A DNA stretch of 49,184 nucleotides, from positions 1,784-50,967 of the forward strand of contig CAYOHI010000004.1 of assembly GCA_964403725.1 (NCBI GenBank), read 5' to 3'. The translations under genes were made by a program, and so were the position numbers. This stretch comes from an uncultured Candidatus Saccharibacteria bacterium. Lineage in GTDB: Bacteria > Patescibacteriota > Minisyncoccia > Portnoybacterales > UBA2143. The notes beneath the pieces were generated by a model. That model saw only the letters and a program-made list of their open reading frames with translations, did no database searches and was not told the origin of the DNA. Below, piece after piece: positions 22,639-46,068 of this stretch. The stretch's first letter is position 1. Every line of letters begins with the position of its first letter.

Positions 22639-23109
22639 CTATTGTGAAATACAATAATTTTTACCATAGCCTGTATCATAGTTACTATGGTAACAACTAT
22701 CTAATGTTGAAGATCCTTCTAGCGTCGCCCACAGAGTAACATGATCACCGCCACTGCAGATTATCATATATCCCCGGTTGCCCTGGGTCGGATCCTCTGC
22801 TTCTCCGCTGATATATCCTAAATTAACTAATTGTTCAGCAACTGAATAAGTACTGGAATAATTGTGATTCAGCCAGCCATTGCCGCCAGAACCAGCATTA
22901 TGGACGCAAAACGTTCCATAATCATCATAGTACAAACTCAAAGCCAACATGACCGCTTTCATATCACTCAATCTTCTAGCATCTCTAGCTTTAGCCCTAG
23001 CCGTATTTAAAGAAACCAAAACAATAGTAGCTAACAGGCCAATAATGGCGATAACTACTAACAATTCAATTAATGTAAAACCCTTATTCTTTGATTTCCA
23101 ATAATTCAT
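22639..23109 (-). CDS. Type IV pilin-like protein D
   Basis: MNYWKSKNKG/FTLIE; start moved to ATG 23109. Confidence 0.88.
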   Translation of the reverse strand: MNYWKSKNKGFTLIELLVVIAIIGLLATIVLVSLNTARAKARDARRLSDMKAVMLALSLYYDDYGTFCVHNAGSGGNGWLNHNYSSTYSVAEQLVNLGYISGEAEDPTQGNRGYMIICSGGDHVTLWATLEGSSTLDSCYHSNYDTGYGKNYCISQ

Positions 23110-23338
23110 TGATCTTTGGTTTATCAAAGCCAATAATAATCTCGCCATTAATATCTGTCACAGGCACGCCCATCTGTCCTGATTTTTCAATCATTTCCTT
23201 GGCAGCTTCCTTATCTTCGCCAACATCAATATATTCATACTTAACACCTTTTTCATCCAAATACTCTTTTAAATTAACACAATATGGACAAGTCTTGGTT
23301 GAATAAACTTTGATACTTTGTTTTTTTTCTTCAGTCAT
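23084..23338 (-). CDS. Glutaredoxin-like protein (NrdH/YruB type)
   Basis: CPYC, GQMGVPV and IIGFD motifs. Confidence 0.93.
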   Translation of the reverse strand: MTEEKKQSIKVYSTKTCPYCVNLKEYLDEKGVKYEYIDVGEDKEAAKEMIEKSGQMGVPVTDINGEIIIGFDKPKINELLEIKE

Positions 23339-23342
23339 ATTT

Positions 23343-24257
23343 TTATTTTAACCCCTTAAGATAATCGTAAGCATTTAAAGCTGCTTTGGCACCCTCTCCA
23401 GCGGCAATAATAATCTGCTTATGCGATACATCTGTAACATCACCAGCAGCAAAGATATTCGGCTGTGATGTCATATTTTTTGAATCGACTTTTATTTCCC
23501 CACTTTCATTTAATTCTACCACATTTTTAACTAAATTTGAATTAGCCAAAGAGCCAATGGCTAAAAAAATACCAGCTACTGATAATTCCTTAAACTTCCC
23601 TTGGGTTCCGTTACTATAGACCAAGCCGGAAACGAATTTATCACCTTTAATTTCAGTGACTTTAGCGCTGGTAATGACCTCTATCTTATCGATTTCTTTA
23701 ATCTTTTCCTGAAGCAGCTCATCAGCCTGAAGCTTTGGCGTGGTCTCCATGAGATATATCTTTGAAGCGTATTCAGCCAACTCTAAAGCGGTACTCACCC
23801 CAGCATTGGCCCCGCCGATAACAGCCACGGCTCTGTCTTGGAATAAAGGGGCGTCACATGTCGCGCAATGAGTGATTCCTTTGCCGAATAGCTCTTCTTC
23901 TCCAGGTACGCCTAACTTGCGGGCAACCCGGCCAGTAGTGATTATGACTGTTTTAGCCTTAAAGGATTCTTTTTCTGTCTTGACTTCCGCTTCCACATCG
24001 CTTATTGCTTTAATCTCCTTAATGCTTTCGCCCTCTTTAATCTCAATCTCATTTTTTTTCAAATGATCTGTAAACTTATTAGACAGATCCATGCCTGTAA
24101 CGCTGGTTAGTCCAGGATAGTTCTGGATTAAAGGAGCATAGCTCATCTGCCCGCCCCAATCCTTGGTGATTAAAAGCACTTTAATTCTTTTCCTAGCTGC
24201 ATAAATGCCAGCACTAACAGAAGCCGGTCCTCCGCCGACAATTATTAAATCATACAT
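23343..24257 (-). CDS. trxB: Thioredoxin-disulfide reductase-like protein
   Basis: GGGPA, CATCD and FAAGDVT motifs. Confidence 0.9.
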   Translation of the reverse strand: MYDLIIVGGGPASVSAGIYAARKRIKVLLITKDWGGQMSYAPLIQNYPGLTSVTGMDLSNKFTDHLKKNEIEIKEGESIKEIKAISDVEAEVKTEKESFKAKTVIITTGRVARKLGVPGEEELFGKGITHCATCDAPLFQDRAVAVIGGANAGVSTALELAEYASKIYLMETTPKLQADELLQEKIKEIDKIEVITSAKVTEIKGDKFVSGLVYSNGTQGKFKELSVAGIFLAIGSLANSNLVKNVVELNESGEIKVDSKNMTSQPNIFAAGDVTDVSHKQIIIAAGEGAKAALNAYDYLKGLK

Positions 24258-24352: not shown

Positions 24353-25117
24353 TCAAACGCTAGTATTTGACAAATCAATGCTCTCTAACGTATATTTCTT
24401 CAGATTAGCTACTTGCCAATCACTCAGCACCTCGCAAGCGAATCCCCAATGCATTGAGATCCAATCGCCAATTTCCGGTTTTTTAATAAAGCCCTTGTCG
24501 TTAATCTTGTAATTAACCTCATAATCAACCAACTGGCCTAAATCTAATCTATCATTCCTCAAGACTATCGGCTGGTACTCGACTTTTAGAGATGAATCAT
24601 TAACTTCTTTAACTTTCCCCCAGCTAATCCGGCAAAGATCCATACTGGATAAGATCTGCATTGAATCAATTTCATCAATATTCTTCCAAACGCTCAAGAC
24701 ATGGAAATTGTGATGTGCTCTGGCTCCCAGTCCTATCTTATCCTTCAGCTTATTCATCCCTTGAATGCTTAATTTCTTCTTCATCTTCAGATTATCAACC
24801 AGATGGTTATGAAGTTCTGACTTATTGATATTCTCCAGTAAGTGGTTGCCGATCCAATATGCTTCAACTACGCTTTCGCTAAAGGGATCCCTGATTCTGT
24901 TGTGTCTGGCAATAATTTTCAAATATGGATAAAGAGTTTGAAATTCCTCTAGAATATTCTTTAAGCCTTGGTCAACATCAGAACTGTGACAATAGTGGAA
25001 AAGATCTGTATTTTTATCGGGGCCGCAAAAAGTCAATCGATTGGGCATAAAACCGTATCGCGCACACCTGATTATCCCATCTGAATCAAATTGTGCTAAC
25101 TGATTTGTCTTTAGCAT
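24353..25117 (-). CDS. DUF6390-like protein with HypC-like C-terminal domain
   Basis: ARYGFMPN.L.FCGP, VVEAYWIGN, AHHNFHV, CRISWG and GDWISMHWG motifs. Confidence 0.75.
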   Translation of the reverse strand: MLKTNQLAQFDSDGIIRCARYGFMPNRLTFCGPDKNTDLFHYCHSSDVDQGLKNILEEFQTLYPYLKIIARHNRIRDPFSESVVEAYWIGNHLLENINKSELHNHLVDNLKMKKKLSIQGMNKLKDKIGLGARAHHNFHVLSVWKNIDEIDSMQILSSMDLCRISWGKVKEVNDSSLKVEYQPIVLRNDRLDLGQLVDYEVNYKINDKGFIKKPEIGDWISMHWGFACEVLSDWQVANLKKYTLESIDLSNTSV

Positions 25118-25985
25118 ATTTCATAGATCGGTAAATAGAGCCAGTAGCTACCAACGCCAACATTATACCAAAAAACTGGCTAGACAACAAAGCTTCATCT
25201 AAGAGTATCCATGATAGAATCATTGTTACTGGGGTAGCTAACAAAAGAATCACAGCGGCTTCAGAAACTTTTACATATTTCAACCCCATATACCATGTTG
25301 AAATATATCCAAAAAGCAATACGCTGGTAATCATAACCCAGCCCAATTGATGAAAGCTTATCGTACTGGCCAAGCTTAATTGATTAGTAAATAACAGGAA
25401 TATAATGATAAAGGCAGAGCCAAAAAACATTCTCGCTCCAGCAATAATCCTAAAAGATAAATCCTTCAGCATGTATTTACTCAAGACACTTTCTCCAGCC
25501 CAAAACAAAGTAGCTGTTAAAATTAACGAATCTCCAAAACCAAAGTTATGCGGAGTTGCCTTTAACAAAAGGATATTGGCTAAAAACAGAATCAGTCCGG
25601 CAATTAGGAAATTCCTGCTCATCTTTTCCTTCAAAAAAACAATCGCCAATAGAGCGATATATATGAACATTGTCTTATGAATAAAGGCAGCCTGAATTCC
25701 AGTTGTTAGGGTTAACCCTTTGAAAAACAACAAAAAAGGAATTGATCCGCCAATCAGTCCAATTCCTAACAAAAGAAACCATTGTTTAATATTTAAATTC
25801 TTTAAAATCTTCCAATCTCTCATCATCAATAGCCAACTGACAAGCAGCAAGGCAACAATGACATTTTTCAATCCGGTAAAGATGTATGGATTAATCACTG
25901 CCACTCCAAACTTGTTAATAAAGACAGACAAGCCCGAAATGAGAGCTGTTGATAAGATTAATAGGTATCCTTTGTTTTTATTCAT
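25086..25985 (-). CDS. DMT/EamA-family transporter
   Basis: About 10 TM segments in two EamA-like repeats. Confidence 0.88.
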   Translation of the reverse strand: MNKNKGYLLILSTALISGLSVFINKFGVAVINPYIFTGLKNVIVALLLVSWLLMMRDWKILKNLNIKQWFLLLGIGLIGGSIPFLLFFKGLTLTTGIQAAFIHKTMFIYIALLAIVFLKEKMSRNFLIAGLILFLANILLLKATPHNFGFGDSLILTATLFWAGESVLSKYMLKDLSFRIIAGARMFFGSAFIIIFLLFTNQLSLASTISFHQLGWVMITSVLLFGYISTWYMGLKYVKVSEAAVILLLATPVTMILSWILLDEALLSSQFFGIMLALVATGSIYRSMKYAKDKSVSTI

Positions 25986-26009
25986 AATATGGTATATACT
26001 TAAATTAAT

Positions 26010-26234
26010 ATGTGCCTAGCAACTCCATCAAAAGTAATAAAGATAGAAGATAACCAAGCAGTGGTTCAATCTGGCGATCACACACACCAGGTCAGTTTAG
26101 ATTTGATTAAAGATATTAAGATTGGAGATTATTTATTAATTCACGGCGAATTAGCAATCCAGAAAGTCCCTGAAGCTGAAGCGAAAAAAATCATCAAGAT
26201 GATTGAAAAGCATTCTAATGAACTGAACAAGTAA
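26010..26234 (+). CDS. hypC: Hydrogenase maturation chaperone HypC/HupF
   Basis: MCLATP N-terminus, GDYLLIHG. Confidence 0.93.
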   Translation: MCLATPSKVIKIEDNQAVVQSGDHTHQVSLDLIKDIKIGDYLLIHGELAIQKVPEAEAKKIIKMIEKHSNELNK

Positions 26235-27429
26235 TACAAGGATCGTATGCTCTGACCAGCATAGTAATCAACCGTTCTAATTCTTCTTGGGAACGGTTTT
26301 TTGTTTGTTTGATTAAATTCTCTGAGCTCTTTTCAATCGAAGTCAGATTCTGGACTGTTGGGGTAATGATATTTGCCTCCTTGATAATCCCATCCTTATT
26401 CAAATGGACCTCATGGTAAAGGCTGCCCCTGGGAGCTTCGACATATCCTATGCCTTTCAAAGAAGCATCTTTACCAGGCTTAACCACCTTATTCTTCAAA
26501 TCACCTTTTAAGAGATTCTCGATAATCTCCATGGCTTGATTATGGAAAATTCCAACTTCAATGGCTTGAGCCAAATTATTATGAAATGGGTTCTCAAAAT
26601 CAACTTTGTATTTTGTCTCATCATAATTTCTGAAAACAGCAAGTCTGGCTAAGGATCCAACCAGCATTTCTTCTCCTTTGTATTTGCCAAATTTGGCAGT
26701 TGAATAATCTCTCAATTCTTCATCAATAGTTTCTTTGTATTTCTTGGGTGATGTTTCTTTCCTGCCCCGAATATTGTTTGAAGAAACAGCCACAATCTTA
26801 TCCTCATACAGAGCAACCAATTGCAAATTGACTTTCAGTTCAGGGAATTCTATGCCATTAACCAAATCCATCGTATCCTTGGCAGCTTTTTTGGTATTCT
26901 CTAATTTTTTAAGCAATTCCTCTAATTCTTTTTTAGTCGGAACCTTATGAAAACCGCCAATCCTGGTCCTGGTCGGATGAACGATTCTTCCACCAACAAT
27001 TCTGACAATTTCATCTGAAACTTCTTTTAAAGATAAGGCCTTTTTAAATACTTCAGGATTTTTCTTGGCCAATTCAGTTCCCCTGTCAATTCCCAAGTAG
27101 TCTGGCAAGGATAAGAAGAAAAGATGCAAAGCATGAGATTGAAGCATTTGCCCGCAATTCATCAAATCACGAAGAGACTCTGTCACCTGACTGACTTCAA
27201 TGCCATAGGCGTCTTCTACAGCTCTTAGAGATGCCAGATTATGGGCTGTTGGACAGACTCCGCAGATACGAGGAGTAATCCAATGCATTTCCTCAGCCGT
27301 TCGATCAACTAGCAAACCTTCAAAAAGGCGCTCGCCTTCATGAACATTTAATTCAACCTTGTTTTTCTTCCAATCAATATCTAAAGTTCCGTGTCCTTCA
27401 ATTTTTGCAATAAATTGTTTATCTAACAT
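26215..27429 (-). CDS. NiFe hydrogenase large (alpha) subunit, group 3b-like
   Basis: KIEGHG, L1 RICGVCPTAH, EAPRGSLYH, L2 DPCITCSVH-stop. Confidence 0.93.
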   Translation of the reverse strand: MLDKQFIAKIEGHGTLDIDWKKNKVELNVHEGERLFEGLLVDRTAEEMHWITPRICGVCPTAHNLASLRAVEDAYGIEVSQVTESLRDLMNCGQMLQSHALHLFFLSLPDYLGIDRGTELAKKNPEVFKKALSLKEVSDEIVRIVGGRIVHPTRTRIGGFHKVPTKKELEELLKKLENTKKAAKDTMDLVNGIEFPELKVNLQLVALYEDKIVAVSSNNIRGRKETSPKKYKETIDEELRDYSTAKFGKYKGEEMLVGSLARLAVFRNYDETKYKVDFENPFHNNLAQAIEVGIFHNQAMEIIENLLKGDLKNKVVKPGKDASLKGIGYVEAPRGSLYHEVHLNKDGIIKEANIITPTVQNLTSIEKSSENLIKQTKNRSQEELERLITMLVRAYDPCITCSVH

Positions 27430-28165
27430 TTTTGTATTCCTCTCTTTTTTTCAAAAACATACTAAAATACCTTTCAATTTCTTTTTTATCCGTTATGTCA
27501 TTTAAAATCTTTAATAAATTCCTAACTTCAGCTCCTTCGCGCGGACCAAAGCAGCCGTAGCATGGTGATCCGCTGGAAACGCAAATCGCATCGCATCCGC
27601 CTTGCGTTATCGGACCCAAACAAGGCTTCTTATCAAGCAGCCGACAGTCATTGCCAGCCTGCTTGCATTCAAAACAAACCGAATAGCCGCGATACTTTGG
27701 AGTCTTGCCTGATAACAATTCTTCCAAGATCCTAACCAGTTCATCGCCGTTTACAGGACAACCATGGATTAGAAAATCCACTTGGACATGAGCTGACAGA
27801 GGCAAGGCGTCGATTCCACGAGGCTTGTACTTATCCCCATAGATCTTCTTGTACCATTTCTTTCTCTTGTCCTTATTCATAATTCCAGGAATACCGCCAA
27901 GGCAAGCACAAGCTCCTAATCCAATCAAAATCCCTGATTCTTCCCTTAATTTTTTCAAAGTATCCACTTCATGCTGGGTTATGGGCGTGCCTTCAATAAT
28001 GGTCACGTCATACGGACCCGGCTTGTTATCTTCCTGACCCAAGCGCCAATTGACAATATTAATCCTTTTTTCCAAAGTTAAAATCTTTTCCCTTAGGGAA
28101 ACCAGAGCTACTTCACATCCTTCACAATCTGTAAATTCAAATATGGCTACTTTTGGCTTAGGCAT
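27419..28165 (-). CDS. NiFe hydrogenase small (delta) subunit
   Basis: DCEGC, GACACLGG, GCP, CFEC, PCLGP and CYGC motifs. Confidence 0.92.
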   Translation of the reverse strand: MPKPKVAIFEFTDCEGCEVALVSLREKILTLEKRINIVNWRLGQEDNKPGPYDVTIIEGTPITQHEVDTLKKLREESGILIGLGACACLGGIPGIMNKDKRKKWYKKIYGDKYKPRGIDALPLSAHVQVDFLIHGCPVNGDELVRILEELLSGKTPKYRGYSVCFECKQAGNDCRLLDKKPCLGPITQGGCDAICVSSGSPCYGCFGPREGAEVRNLLKILNDITDKKEIERYFSMFLKKREEYKNVR

Positions 28166-28168
28166 AGT

Positions 28169-28993
28169 CTAATCCCAACTTTTATCTATTTCATCAAAAT
28201 GGAAAACTGGTCCATCTTGGCAAACAAATTTGTCACCCACCGTACAATGCTGGCACTTACCAACTCCACATTGCATTTTTCTTTCCATATTAACAAAAAT
28301 TCTCCGATCAGAAATTCCTAAAGGCCTTAAGATTCTTTCCAAGGCATCCATCATCGGCCCGGGACCGCACATGGCTGAGACTGCATCCAATGGGTCTATC
28401 TTAATATCGCTAATAAGAGCTGAAACTATGCCCACATGTCCTTTCCATGCCTTATCTGGATTATCCACAGTCAGCATAACCTTTATATCACGCTCCCATT
28501 TCTTCAGATTATCCTTCATTAATAGGTCTTTGGGAGTCCTGGCCCCATAGACTAGATATGTCCTGCCGAATTTTTTCCTGTATTCAATAATGTATTCTAT
28601 TAAAGATGCGATTGGCGGAATACCGCAGCCGCCTGTAACCATAACTACATCCTTGCCAGACATGAAATCTACCGGGAAGCCATTGCCATATGGACCGCGC
28701 ATAAAGATCTGATCGCCTTTTTCCAACTGATGCATAGCTTTGGTCAGGCATCCAGCGCGCCTTACCACAATATCTACATATTTAGTCTCAAAAGGCGAAG
28801 AAGCGATACCAAAAGGCGCTTCGCCATAACCGAAATGACTAACTAGAATGAATTGTCCCGGGTTAAAGACAATGCCTTTTTCATTGACTGGAAAGCTGCC
28901 CTTTTCTTTTTGCAATCTAAAAAGCTTAACACTGCCTGAATGCTCTTCAACTTTTACAATATTTACCTTTGTTGGCTCATAAATATTCTTCAT
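28169..28993 (-). CDS. Hydrogenase gamma subunit (FAD/NAD(P)-binding, 2Fe-2S)
   Basis: PGQF, RGPYGNGF, GGCGIPP, CGPGPMM and CGVGKCQHC...C motifs. Confidence 0.92.
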   Translation of the reverse strand: MKNIYEPTKVNIVKVEEHSGSVKLFRLQKEKGSFPVNEKGIVFNPGQFILVSHFGYGEAPFGIASSPFETKYVDIVVRRAGCLTKAMHQLEKGDQIFMRGPYGNGFPVDFMSGKDVVMVTGGCGIPPIASLIEYIIEYRKKFGRTYLVYGARTPKDLLMKDNLKKWERDIKVMLTVDNPDKAWKGHVGIVSALISDIKIDPLDAVSAMCGPGPMMDALERILRPLGISDRRIFVNMERKMQCGVGKCQHCTVGDKFVCQDGPVFHFDEIDKSWD

Positions 28994-29907
28994 TGTTTTT
29001 TAAAATCTTTGACAATTTCTCCCAAAACTTCGCCAATCTTAATTCCTGCCGGGCAATTCTTGCCGCAACTGCCGCAAGCCACGCATTGGGCCTTGCCGAA
29101 TTGCTTGTAGGCTCTGACAAACTTATGGTAATACCAGTTATAGTATCGTTCTTTGATAGTTTTATGGAAATTATGATTGCCAACCACTTGGGAGAATTTA
29201 GGCAGAGTGCAAGCATCCCACTCTCGACAACGCTCGCATTGAGAATCATCTAAAGTGACCCTGTCATCAATTGAAAAACAATGACAAATCGGACAGACAT
29301 AAGTGCAAATTCCACACCCCAGGCACCTATCAGCCAATTCATCCCAAATCTTGTGATTAGCTTTCCAAGACCATTCTACTACATCAGCTAGTAATTCTGA
29401 ATCCAAAAGCATTTCTTTAAATGGATTTGGTTTTGATGGATAATTAACAGTCTTTGGCTTTAAAACTTTTTTAAAGAATTTATCCTTTACCAATCTTCTT
29501 CCTTTATCATTCAATATCCAAGTCCTGTATTCCTTGTCATTAATCTTTTCTAAAATTAGGTCTCCGCCTTTTGGAACCTTAAATGAGTTATTAACAATGC
29601 CAATCAAAACCGATTTGTCTCTTTTCTGCCAATAGAAGAAATCTTTTTCTGGCTTCTCCATAATCTCATCTAGCTGAGTAATGGCTTCCAGTTCACTCAA
29701 ATACCCAATCAACAGCAAAAGATCCTTTGAGTTATCCACAGTCTTCAACTTGCCAGTTTTTTTGTCAAAATTAAAAAGACCCTCCTTAGGTGGAAAAAAG
29801 TATTGCTTGACTGGCAGGAGCTTTTTGCGGGTATCAGTAACTTTAAAATCTTTTTTCAATCCTGCCAACCAATCTTTAATTTTATCTTTTTTGATGATCA
29901 GTTCCAT
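28990..29907 (-). CDS. Hydrogenase beta subunit (4Fe-4S dicluster, AsrA-like)
   Basis: CLGCGICTYVCPICHC and CVACGSCGKNCP. Confidence 0.9.
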   Translation of the reverse strand: MELIIKKDKIKDWLAGLKKDFKVTDTRKKLLPVKQYFFPPKEGLFNFDKKTGKLKTVDNSKDLLLLIGYLSELEAITQLDEIMEKPEKDFFYWQKRDKSVLIGIVNNSFKVPKGGDLILEKINDKEYRTWILNDKGRRLVKDKFFKKVLKPKTVNYPSKPNPFKEMLLDSELLADVVEWSWKANHKIWDELADRCLGCGICTYVCPICHCFSIDDRVTLDDSQCERCREWDACTLPKFSQVVGNHNFHKTIKERYYNWYYHKFVRAYKQFGKAQCVACGSCGKNCPAGIKIGEVLGEIVKDFKKQ

Positions 29908-45153: not shown

Positions 45154-46068
45154 TTAAAAGACTAGAATTCCAAGTCCTGTGACAATGAAAATGATAGCAA
45201 TAGTTTTTTGCATAACTGCACTTTGATTGATTTGTTCTCTAATAATAGAAGGAAATTTTTTAGATAAAAACAAGGCTATGATAAAAAGGAAAATATATTG
45301 GATGCCTTGCAAAGCATTAATCAAGGTAACGCTCCCTAAGAAAATTGCATAATTGAGCATAATGAAGGCCAAGCCAGACAACCCCTTGTTAACAACAGCC
45401 AATCCCCCGGTTTTTAATTTAACCTTATCTGATGTTCTAATAATAGCCCGACGGCTAAATGGAAGAATGAATAATATCAAGGCCCCAATAACCCCTCCTA
45501 AACGAATCCAGATAAAACCGTTAATGAACGGATGATAAGAATAAATATATTTGCTTAAAACATATGATCCGGCAAAGAACAATGCGGCTAAAATGGCCAA
45601 AGGCAGTCTCTTGATTAAGGATGTTTTAACCAATCCTGAAATAAATCTGGCTTGTTTTCGAGGCCAAGCCATAACTATCCCGCCAAAGACAAGCAGACTG
45701 AAAGCAATTATCTGATTAATCAGCAATTTCTCATCTAAGGCAAAATATGCAAAGATAAAAGTAAATAAAGGAATTAATCCGCCAATAATCGGGGTGATTC
45801 TGGAAACCTCACCCAACTGGACTGATTTATAGAAAAAGAAAATCGCTAAAACAAAACAAATGCCAGCTACAAAACTAATCAACATATGATCCCTAGACAA
45901 GATATCAAAGCCGAAAGGAAATAGCAGAATAGCTATGCCGCCAAATATGCCAACATAAAAAGCATAGGCAGCCGGCCGTAGCTGGGTATGTGAAAACAAG
46001 TATTTATCTACTATAAAAACCAAAGAAAAAACAAAGTGAGCAACAATAACAATAATTAACCAATTCAT
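45154..46068 (-). CDS. EamA/DMT-family transporter
   Basis: About 10 TM segments, GEVSRITP. Confidence 0.8.
   Translation of the reverse strand: MNWLIIVIVAHFVFSLVFIVDKYLFSHTQLRPAAYAFYVGIFGGIAILLFPFGFDILSRDHMLISFVAGICFVLAIFFFYKSVQLGEVSRITPIIGGLIPLFTFIFAYFALDEKLLINQIIAFSLLVFGGIVMAWPRKQARFISGLVKTSLIKRLPLAILAALFFAGSYVLSKYIYSYHPFINGFIWIRLGGVIGALILFILPFSRRAIIRTSDKVKLKTGGLAVVNKGLSGLAFIMLNYAIFLGSVTLINALQGIQYIFLFIIALFLSKKFPSIIREQINQSAVMQKTIAIIFIVTGLGILVF

Follow-up and report, generated by a model that had tools for sequence, protein, structure and literature searches.

How a [NiFe]-hydrogenase acquires its Fe(CN)2CO centre when most of the dedicated maturation proteins are lacking is the question raised by a stretch of 49,184 nucleotides (the window) of contig CAYOHI010000004.1, from an uncultured bacterium of the Patescibacteria whose close homologues are labeled Parcubacteria or Portnoybacteria in public records. 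The source genome (675 kb, 16 contigs, 99% complete) encodes an intact four-subunit hydrogenase with HypC as its only Hyp protein, against the rule, given in an excerpt of PMC12134894, that the cofactor of every [NiFe]-hydrogenase requires the six Hyp proteins A to F. Near the hydrogenase genes lies a gene (24353-25117, minus strand) for a 254-aa protein of the DUF6390 family (PF19927), which is very probably an accessory of hydrogenase maturation bearing a Cys/His metal site. More tentatively, we assign to it the role of an iron-centre carrier or scaffold, iron being suspected rather than nickel, in a maturation route independent of HypD, HypE and HypF.

The protein matches PF19927 with 193.7 bits for a cut-off of 25, residues 12-252 being aligned with positions 3-239 of the 244 of the profile. 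Its AlphaFold model (pLDDT 88.9) displays helices up to residue 162, the strands of a barrel between residues 165 and 231 and a last helix at 233-251. Two domains were delimited: an N-terminal domain, all-helical in the models (residues 1-160; 24638..25117, minus strand), and a HypC-like OB domain (residues 161-254; 24353..24637, minus strand), highlighted by hhalign, TIGR00074 and fold matches and in which, as in the HypC family, the modeled OB barrel is followed by a C-terminal helix. The hhalign comparison of 37 DUF6390 with 36 HypC sequences (E 3.2e-4, probability 38.6, 66 columns) pairs Cys162 with HypC Cys2 and His223 with HypC His45, exactly as in the by-eye alignment from which a preliminary description of the locus had proposed a HypC-like C-terminus retaining Cys and His. 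The hypC profile TIGR00074 is the only NCBIfam match of the protein (E 0.0016, 18.2 bits, under the cut-off of 48). HypC structures, namely 2z1c (HypC of T. kodakarensis, on top), 3vyr and 2ot2, head the fold matches of the rear domain: the best Foldseek matches of the model were HypC proteins (2z1c_B, E 6.6e-3, TM to target 0.67), and VIA-align placed first 2z1c_A (Z 5.8, rmsd 1.9 A over 71 of 71 residues, 28% identity) followed by 2ot2 (Z 4.5).

The same relationship is weak in single sequences. BLASTP gave no alignment between DUF6390 and the neighboring HypC at E <= 100, so that the relationship is visible only through profiles and folds; no match to PF01455 was obtained, only four of 56 diverse family members reached TIGR00074 singly at E <= 0.01, and the profile of the 37 DUF6390 sequences reached HypC among the PDB sequences only at E 1.1. 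The best match in this last search, amyloid-precursor E2 domains (E 0.023), is due to a short HHxF stretch and was taken as chance. With regard to the HypC traits, the aligned Cys is the internal residue 162 and not residue 2 of a free N-terminus, whereas the His stands in the expected G-D-x-[VIL]-x-x-H strand, where His223 is invariant. The rear part of DUF6390 is a genuine HypC-type domain that retains the Cys and the His.

The helical domain, modeled alone (pLDDT 79.2), had as best VIA-align match a designed helical protein (Z 6.3 over 62 residues), followed by helical fragments, and the ESM Atlas search returned no usable match; the absence of a convincing fold match in these searches, and for this domain in the search with the complete model, is no proof of a new fold. 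The protein has no match to the HypD family (PF01924) and contains five Cys (18, 31, 43, 162 and 228), its N-terminal domain being all-helical in the model. Nor does it belong to the HypA (PF01155), HypB (TIGR00073) or NikR families, which says nothing on a similar mode of working. The predicted complex of DUF6390 with the hydrogenase large subunit scored 0.00 in two runs, a result that speaks neither for nor against binding.

Four residues are unchanged in 12 of 12 sequences, drawn from all contexts, as well as in 56 diverse representatives: Cys31 (in FCGP, with an invariant C-G; codon 25025-25027) and His136 (the second His of AHHNFH; codon 24710-24712) in the N-terminal domain, Cys162 (codon 24632-24634) and His223 (codon 24449-24451) in the HypC-like domain, all on the minus strand. 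His135 and His139 of AHHNFH are nearly invariant. The FCGP and AHHNFH motifs had been put forward as potential ligands in the preliminary description, and the invariance of Cys31 and His136 makes these two residues the candidates. The simplest and most likely reading of this conservation is a single Cys2His2 site between the domains. In HypC, the His is tied to the binding of the iron centre. According to the part of PMC11565642 consulted here, HypC Cys2 and HypD Cys41 (C-G-G-H motif) hold Fe(CN)2CO in the HypCD complex through their thiolates, and His residues hydrogen-bond the cyanides; the counterpart set in DUF6390 consists of Cys162, Cys31 in its C-G and two His.

The gene arrangement is as first described, DUF6390 overlapping a DMT transporter gene and both diverging from hypC. 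The EamA/DMT permease (299 aa; 25086-25985, minus strand) matches PF00892 over two stretches corresponding to two repeats (E 3.7e-37, 128.1 bits for a cut-off of 28.2), and the final 32 nt of its gene overlap the start of DUF6390. The start at 25117 is considered correct, and not Met24, because homologues conserve residues 13-23; the database gene call P0001 (231 aa, 100% identical; window positions 25048-25117) apparently starts at Met24, which would remove the conserved Gly14 to Phe23, and the 254-aa ORF overlapping EamA agrees with the family alignment. The hypC gene (74 aa; 26010-26234, plus strand; PF01455, E 4.9e-21), whose product retains Cys2 and His45, lies 24 bp from the EamA start, from which it diverges, and its 3' end overlaps by 20 nt that of the large-subunit gene. 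It is the sole plus-strand gene inside a one-directional row, squeezed between the EamA start and the large-subunit end, a layout found identical in L007-L012 and L017; the promoters must be inside the adjacent genes.

The hydrogenase genes, all on the minus strand, encode the group-3b-like large (alpha) subunit (404 aa; 26215-27429), the small (delta) subunit (27419-28165; PF01058; NF040831, E 4.5e-52), the gamma subunit (FAD/NAD, Fe-S; 28169-28993) and the beta subunit (4Fe-4S; 28990-29907), the last two being recognized by Pfam and NCBIfam profiles. All four genes are intact, and the presence of both CxxC motifs together with delta, gamma and beta partners agrees with a group-3b enzyme; the best NCBIfam matches of the subunits are sulfhydrogenase subunits, each under its equivalog cut-off. 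The large subunit carries the two metal motifs RICGVC and DPCITCSVH, and its metal-binding Cys 56, 59, 398 and 401 are invariant, with many other residues, among 26 aligned sequences. Its C-terminus is DPCITCSVH without extension and, since the protein already ends at this His, no maturation protease is needed.

The absence of hypABDEF, first noticed in the window, extends to the whole genome. No match to HypD, HypE, HypA or HypB was detected at E <= 0.001 in the 675 kb or in the window, and the HypF profile gave only sub-cut-off matches to TsaC/TsaD-type genes. In tblastn, the queries being HypF, HypD and HypE from one HypD-positive relative plus HypD from a second, neither HypD nor HypE was recovered and HypF matched two TsaC-like genes only. 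The genome carries one copy of HypC and one of DUF6390. HydG, which makes an Fe-CO/CN synthon, was rejected as a ligand source for this genome because tblastn found none, and the HypE, HypF and HydG profile and tblastn searches revealed no CN- or CO-forming enzyme in the 675 kb. In this genome without HypD, E, F, A and B, DUF6390 and EamA are the only hydrogenase-linked candidates for providing the large subunit with its iron centre.

The distribution of the family was analyzed in two phyla. Among 301 genomes of Patescibacteria, DUF6390 was detected in 27, the large subunit in 64, HypC in 59 and HypD in 17. Every DUF6390 genome encodes the large subunit (on the same contig within 12 kb in 25 of the 27), none encodes HypD and five have no separate HypC; the 64 genomes with a hydrogenase comprise 15 with HypD, 27 with DUF6390 and 22 with neither. 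The 121 Chloroflexota genomes contain 13 with DUF6390, all with a large subunit, 56 with HypD and 73 with the large subunit, and DUF6390 and HypD never overlap: the 73 are divided into 55 with HypD, 13 with DUF6390 and five with neither, these five having weak large-subunit matches only. Omission of the unpublished genome G343, positive for HypD and hydrogenase, leaves HypD in 55 and the large subunit in 72 of 120 genomes, and the conclusion is unchanged. HypD is therefore lacking in 40 of 40 DUF6390 genomes of two phyla, DUF6390 being each time the hydrogenase-linked gene of unassigned function. Furthermore, neither HypE over its cut-off nor HypF at E <= 1e-20 was found in any of 39 DUF6390 genomes of both phyla. 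Sub-cut-off "HypE" matches in Chloroflexota (120.7 and 100.9 bits) proved to be generic AIR-synthase-type genes outside hydrogenase clusters, and one of them adjoins ThiN and a NifS-like gene. The genomes are related and not independent, so these counts are patterns and not probabilities. The preliminary description had named a complete hypA-F set, a lack of co-occurrence with hydrogenases and a lack of OB-fold similarity as fatal to its proposal, and none of the three was encountered. The complementarity of DUF6390 and HypD in the two phyla is real, but not universal.

The neighborhoods were compared in 80 related loci of species genomes, contig ends truncating many of these loci. EamA adjoins DUF6390 in 55 of them, and the large subunit is present in 55, the small subunit in 48 and HypC in 28; the module is conserved in at least three phyla. 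In the lineage of the window the permease is always coupled to DUF6390. P0192 and L025 are fusions of the two. The free-standing HypC was also compared. Its canonical His (V-H-[AT]-G-F-A) is kept in all eight readable sequences of HypD-positive Patescibacteria (ten stretches, L099-L108, two of them without an ORF), whereas in DUF6390 genomes (L109-L118, L054, L063, L072, L075, L081 and L030) Q, N, D or Y stands in its place in 8 of 11 sequences from Patescibacteria and 4 of 6 from Chloroflexota or Dehalococcoidales. DUF6390 always keeps its own His, and the HypC of the window retains His45.

The following mechanism can be proposed. Cys31 and His136 of the helical domain and Cys162 and His223, the HypC counterparts, would form one inter-domain metal site, in which two thiolates would hold Fe and subsequently Fe(CN)2CO, like HypC Cys2 and HypD Cys41. 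DUF6390 would act as a single-chain carrier or scaffold loading the large subunit together with the free-standing HypC, and the EamA permease, probably co-translated with it, might supply metal or a precursor. The inherited Cys and His, the second Cys in a C-G, the complementarity with HypDEF and the gene slot after hypC argue for the carrier or scaffold reading, as do the loss of the HypC His in DUF6390 genomes, a DUF6390-like gene found after HydG and the lack of a separate HypC in five DUF6390 Patescibacteria. That DUF6390, the transporter and HypC together are the core of a HypD/E/F-independent assembly of Fe(CN)2CO in [NiFe]-hydrogenases is a further step, which we regard as doubtful.

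Several observations weigh against the iron-centre assignment. Nothing found in this analysis accounts for the synthesis of CN and CO: the "minimal maturation module" of the preliminary description is a proposal rather than a result because a 254-aa protein and a permease leave these ligands unexplained. HydG is encoded in only two of 39 DUF6390 genomes. The HypC-type Cys is internal whereas that of HypC is at a free N-terminus, and the protein, with its five Cys and all-helical N-terminal domain, has neither a [4Fe-4S] motif nor a HypD-like Rossmann fold. DUF6390 also occurs in full hyp operons, on plasmids of Mycobacterium intracellulare (in the order hypF, hypC, hypC-like, SIS, hypE, hypC, hypD, DUF6390) and Sulfobacillus acidophilus (hypF, hypC, hypD, hypE, tatA, DUF6390, hydrogenase, hypA, hypB). 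These two records are both of the DUF6390 matches in the plasmid collection, and the protein is therefore not generally a HypD substitute, so that the alternative scaffold suggested earlier does not stand as a general role. Because the genomes share ancestry and do not count independently, inheritance of whole gene packages may explain part of the clean complementarity. Finally, DNA-binding fusions and NikA-like neighbors point equally to nickel sensing or handling, by which the earlier iron-scaffold reading is weakened.

These last data are the basis of the main rival, which we hold to be rather unlikely: DUF6390 would be a nickel sensor or chaperone, whose Cys2His2 site binds Ni(II) taken from its partner transporter (EamA or a NikA-type ABC transporter) and which either passes the nickel to the large subunit via HypC-like docking or reports nickel status, the DNA-binding fusions being nickel-responsive regulators of transporter genes. 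Besides the EamA neighbor of 55 loci and its fusions, SBP_bac_5 ABC transporters follow DUF6390 in Chloroflexota and Dormibacterota. In the Chloroflexia loci L072, L075 and L054 the order is large subunit, HycI, HypA, HypC, DUF6390 and then such a transporter; in the Dormibacterota locus L074, RuBisCO and a PadR::DUF6390 fusion are followed directly downstream by another. The binding proteins, three of three scanned, have NikA as best match (131-152 bits) and CntA or DppA as next-best, but the NikA scores are far under the family cut-off of 393. A HypA-HypB-DUF6390 operon in G346 and the coexistence with HypDEF in Mycobacterium and Sulfobacillus are also in agreement with a nickel function, and the genome under study encodes neither HypA nor HypB. 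None of its 74 ORFs of at least 150 aa with at least four predicted membrane spans belongs to the recognized importers NiCoT, CbiM, HupE/UreJ, Nik/Opp permease, Feo, NRAMP or ZIP (73 scanned, about 18 of them without Pfam match). HypB over its cut-off is found in 3 of 13 DUF6390 Chloroflexota, as against 16 of 20 HypD-positive ones tested; in Patescibacteria, however, HypB is rare regardless of HypD (0/26 DUF6390 and 3/17 HypD-positive genomes). HypA adjoins DUF6390 in several Chloroflexota loci, and nickel insertion already has its factor there; the order in the Dehalococcoidales locus L030 is Mvh-type hydrogenase, HycI, HypA, HypC, EamA, DUF6390. Moreover, a nickel function gives no reason for the absence of HypD, HypE and HypF in the DUF6390 genomes of two phyla, and the ligands inherited from HypC are tied to an iron centre.

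A role as a pure sensor or gate is less likely still. DUF6390 would sense metal, redox state or the loading of the cofactor pool and would gate the permease or transcription, handing nothing to the enzyme. Eight representatives of above-usual length, chosen from 150 listed, comprise one EamA::DUF6390 protein, five DNA-binding fusions of four kinds (PadR, XRE in two cases, GntR and ArsR), one hypC/DUF6390 read-through and one without an extra domain. All four invariant residues are kept in the DNA-binding fusions, and DUF6390 is the sensing domain in such proteins; this role would suit genomes that have HypDEF as well as those that lack it. Most family members are, nevertheless, free-standing, and in maturation operons DUF6390 takes the position that follows hypC, hypD or hypB. 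The lack of a separate HypC in five of the 27 DUF6390 Patescibacteria fits a protein doing the work of HypC rather than sensing only.

The preliminary description also considered scavenging from a host. A ready-made iron-cyanide-carbonyl precursor or its ligands would be imported via EamA, with DUF6390 as the cytoplasmic acceptor, which we judge highly improbable. Such an import would be consistent with the lack of any detected CN- or CO-forming enzyme in the genome and with the constant coupling of the permease to DUF6390 in the lineage of the window, and exogenous free CO or CN- doubled the activation of [FeFe] hydrogenase in an in vitro assay without HydG (PMC9431212, in the portion consulted). 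The same HypDEF-less arrangement is found, however, in Chloroflexota, whose genomes of 2.1 to 7.3 Mb make dependence on a host unlikely. Furthermore, EamA-family proteins are mostly metabolite exporters and we know of no natural pool of an iron-cyanide-carbonyl precursor. That the hydrogenase is unmatured or a relic, with an unrelated role for DUF6390, has next to no probability: although hypC is the only maturation gene detected in the genome, the large subunit shows no variation in its metal-binding Cys and many further residues, the four subunit genes are intact and the module is conserved in at least three phyla, beside hydrogenase genes in 55 of the 80 loci.

With the carrier or scaffold reading retained as a tentative one, a second HypDEF-free route appears to exist in other Patescibacteria. 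In HypDEF-less members of this phylum, HydG (TIGR03955, 573-613 bits for a cut-off of 312) and fusions of an N-terminal HypC domain with HydE (TIGR03956, 269-281 bits for a cut-off of 255) are encoded inside or beside group-3b [NiFe]-hydrogenase operons (L088:4264-6922 in G153, L087:5308-6609, L089:1703-4356, L091:2642-3943 and L092:3033-6781). One relative has a DUF6390-like gene immediately behind HydG inside the [NiFe] operon. The tie between [FeFe]-type maturases and the [NiFe] chaperone suggests that a [NiFe] enzyme obtains its CO and CN ligands by a radical-SAM route; no paper on this linkage in the Candidate Phyla Radiation was found in the literature searched.

Other genes stand close to those discussed. 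At 23343-24257 (minus strand), 95 nt downstream of DUF6390, lies a thioredoxin-reductase-like flavoprotein gene (304 aa; PF07992, E 1.5e-43), which forms with a CPYC glutaredoxin-like gene (84 aa) a redox pair at window positions 23084-24257. The reductase gene trails DUF6390 by at most 15 nt in the close relatives L007, L008, L011 and L012, and hyd2-type loci carry a ferredoxin and a Pyr_redox_2 flavoprotein upstream of EamA-DUF6390. These redox genes may provide reducing power for maturation or may merely be partners of the enzyme. A family of about 125 aa lies directly downstream of DUF6390 in 37 of the 80 loci (L021:8730-9107, L024:8729-9115) and displays the motifs G-N-x-D, D-T-V and H-D-F-D, by which, by eye, we take it to resemble a minimal HycI/HybD-type maturation protease; two members (L093:5516-5905 and L094:6896-7279) gave no Pfam match, and the family is absent from the window, where the large subunit has no extension. 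RuBisCO adjoins DUF6390 in two unrelated carriers, the locus L074:4554-12227 (phosphoribulokinase, RuBisCO large and small subunits, PadR::DUF6390 and the NikA-like ABC transporter) and the Mycobacterium plasmid L097, where hypD-DUF6390 stands beside cbbX and RuBisCO, a linkage that fits clusters for hydrogen-driven CO2 fixation.

Elsewhere in the genome, a second, weaker EamA gene was noted at window positions 45154-46068, and the genes connected with metals encode two P-type ATPases, a Na/Ca exchanger, an RND pump and a DsbD-like protein carrying an HMA domain. On contig C2 (L004:80-2624), a second, divergent Kae1/TsaD-like gene (153 bits, less than the cut-off for TsaD) and an additional TsaC/YrdC-like gene overlap each other downstream of a GT2 glycosyltransferase, regular tsaD and tsaC being present as well. 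With the Kae1-like protein as query, 33 of 80 Patescibacteria gave one match each, at only about 27-36% identity: 14 of 26 genomes with DUF6390, 10 of 17 with HypD, 6 of 12 with neither and 3 of 25 without hydrogenase. The hypothesis of a split HypF-like carbamoyltransferase formed by this pair was abandoned, no clear enrichment beyond kinship being seen; the pair may carbamoylate a surface sugar. A 169-aa ORF at 22639-23148 has a K-G-F-T-L-I-E-L-L-V-V motif near its N-terminus and is presumably a type IV pilin-like protein.

The literature searched did not mention DUF6390 and contained nothing relevant on a missing hypD or on [NiFe] maturation in the Candidate Phyla Radiation. Jaffe et al. 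(2020; PMC7304191, main text) described hyd1 and hyd2 hydrogenase clades of Patescibacteria with a hypC-like family in the gene context; the word "maturation" is absent from that main text, and its Figure 4b or additional files may show the genes as unnamed families. New here are the two-phylum complementarity, the counts for HypE and HypF, the disappearance of the His from HypC, the coexistence with hypFCDE, the NikA-like neighbors and the HydG and HypC::HydE operons. If assembly without HypDEF is true, the six-Hyp rule fails for [NiFe]-hydrogenases as a whole, and the DUF6390 route would serve 27 of the 64 hydrogenase-bearing Patescibacteria and 13 of the 73 such Chloroflexota in our samples. 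DUF6390 would be either part of a new way of making or obtaining Fe(CN)2CO, or a new nickel-handling or sensing protein, the missing pathway being elsewhere. Either outcome would change the genome-based reading of hydrogen metabolism in ultra-small bacteria and in soil hydrogen oxidizers.

Compared with known systems, DUF6390 recalls the NikR-type regulators in that its helix-turn-helix fusions stand likewise beside NikA-like ABC genes and carry a Cys/His site, but there is no homology and the majority of DUF6390 proteins lack a DNA-binding domain. The HydF/HydG/HydE system is approached in the few HypDEF-less Patescibacteria with HydG and HypC::HydE in a [NiFe] operon, in one of which the DUF6390-like gene follows where the scaffold is expected, whereas HydG is missing from the genome studied here and rare among DUF6390 genomes. 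With HypC, HybG and HupF (PF01455, TIGR00074; 2z1c, 3vyr, 2ot2), the OB barrel with its C-terminal helix, the Cys at the barrel start, the His after the G-D-[YW] strand and the place in maturation operons are common; the DUF6390 domain differs in being the rear part of a longer protein, with its Cys at position 162 instead of 2, in scoring under both family cut-offs and in the extra helical domain, which contributes one invariant Cys and one invariant His.

DUF6390 may play the same part as HypD (PF01924), bringing a second thiolate (the Cys of C-G) and His residues around the iron centre; it fills the gene slot after hypC and never occurs together with HypD in the 422 genomes of Patescibacteria and Chloroflexota. 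It has, however, no sequence or fold relationship with HypD, of which it has neither the [4Fe-4S] motif nor the Rossmann fold, is about 100 residues shorter and coexists with it in Mycobacterium and Sulfobacillus. HoxV and HupK are additional Fe(CN)2CO carriers that work alongside HypCD and a HypC-type protein in O2-tolerant hydrogenases, as reported in the same excerpt of PMC12134894. These proteins resemble the large subunit whereas DUF6390 does not, and the carriage of Fe(CN)2CO by DUF6390 is a proposal; an intermediate-carrier role of this type would fit the DUF6390 copies found beside hypFCDE.

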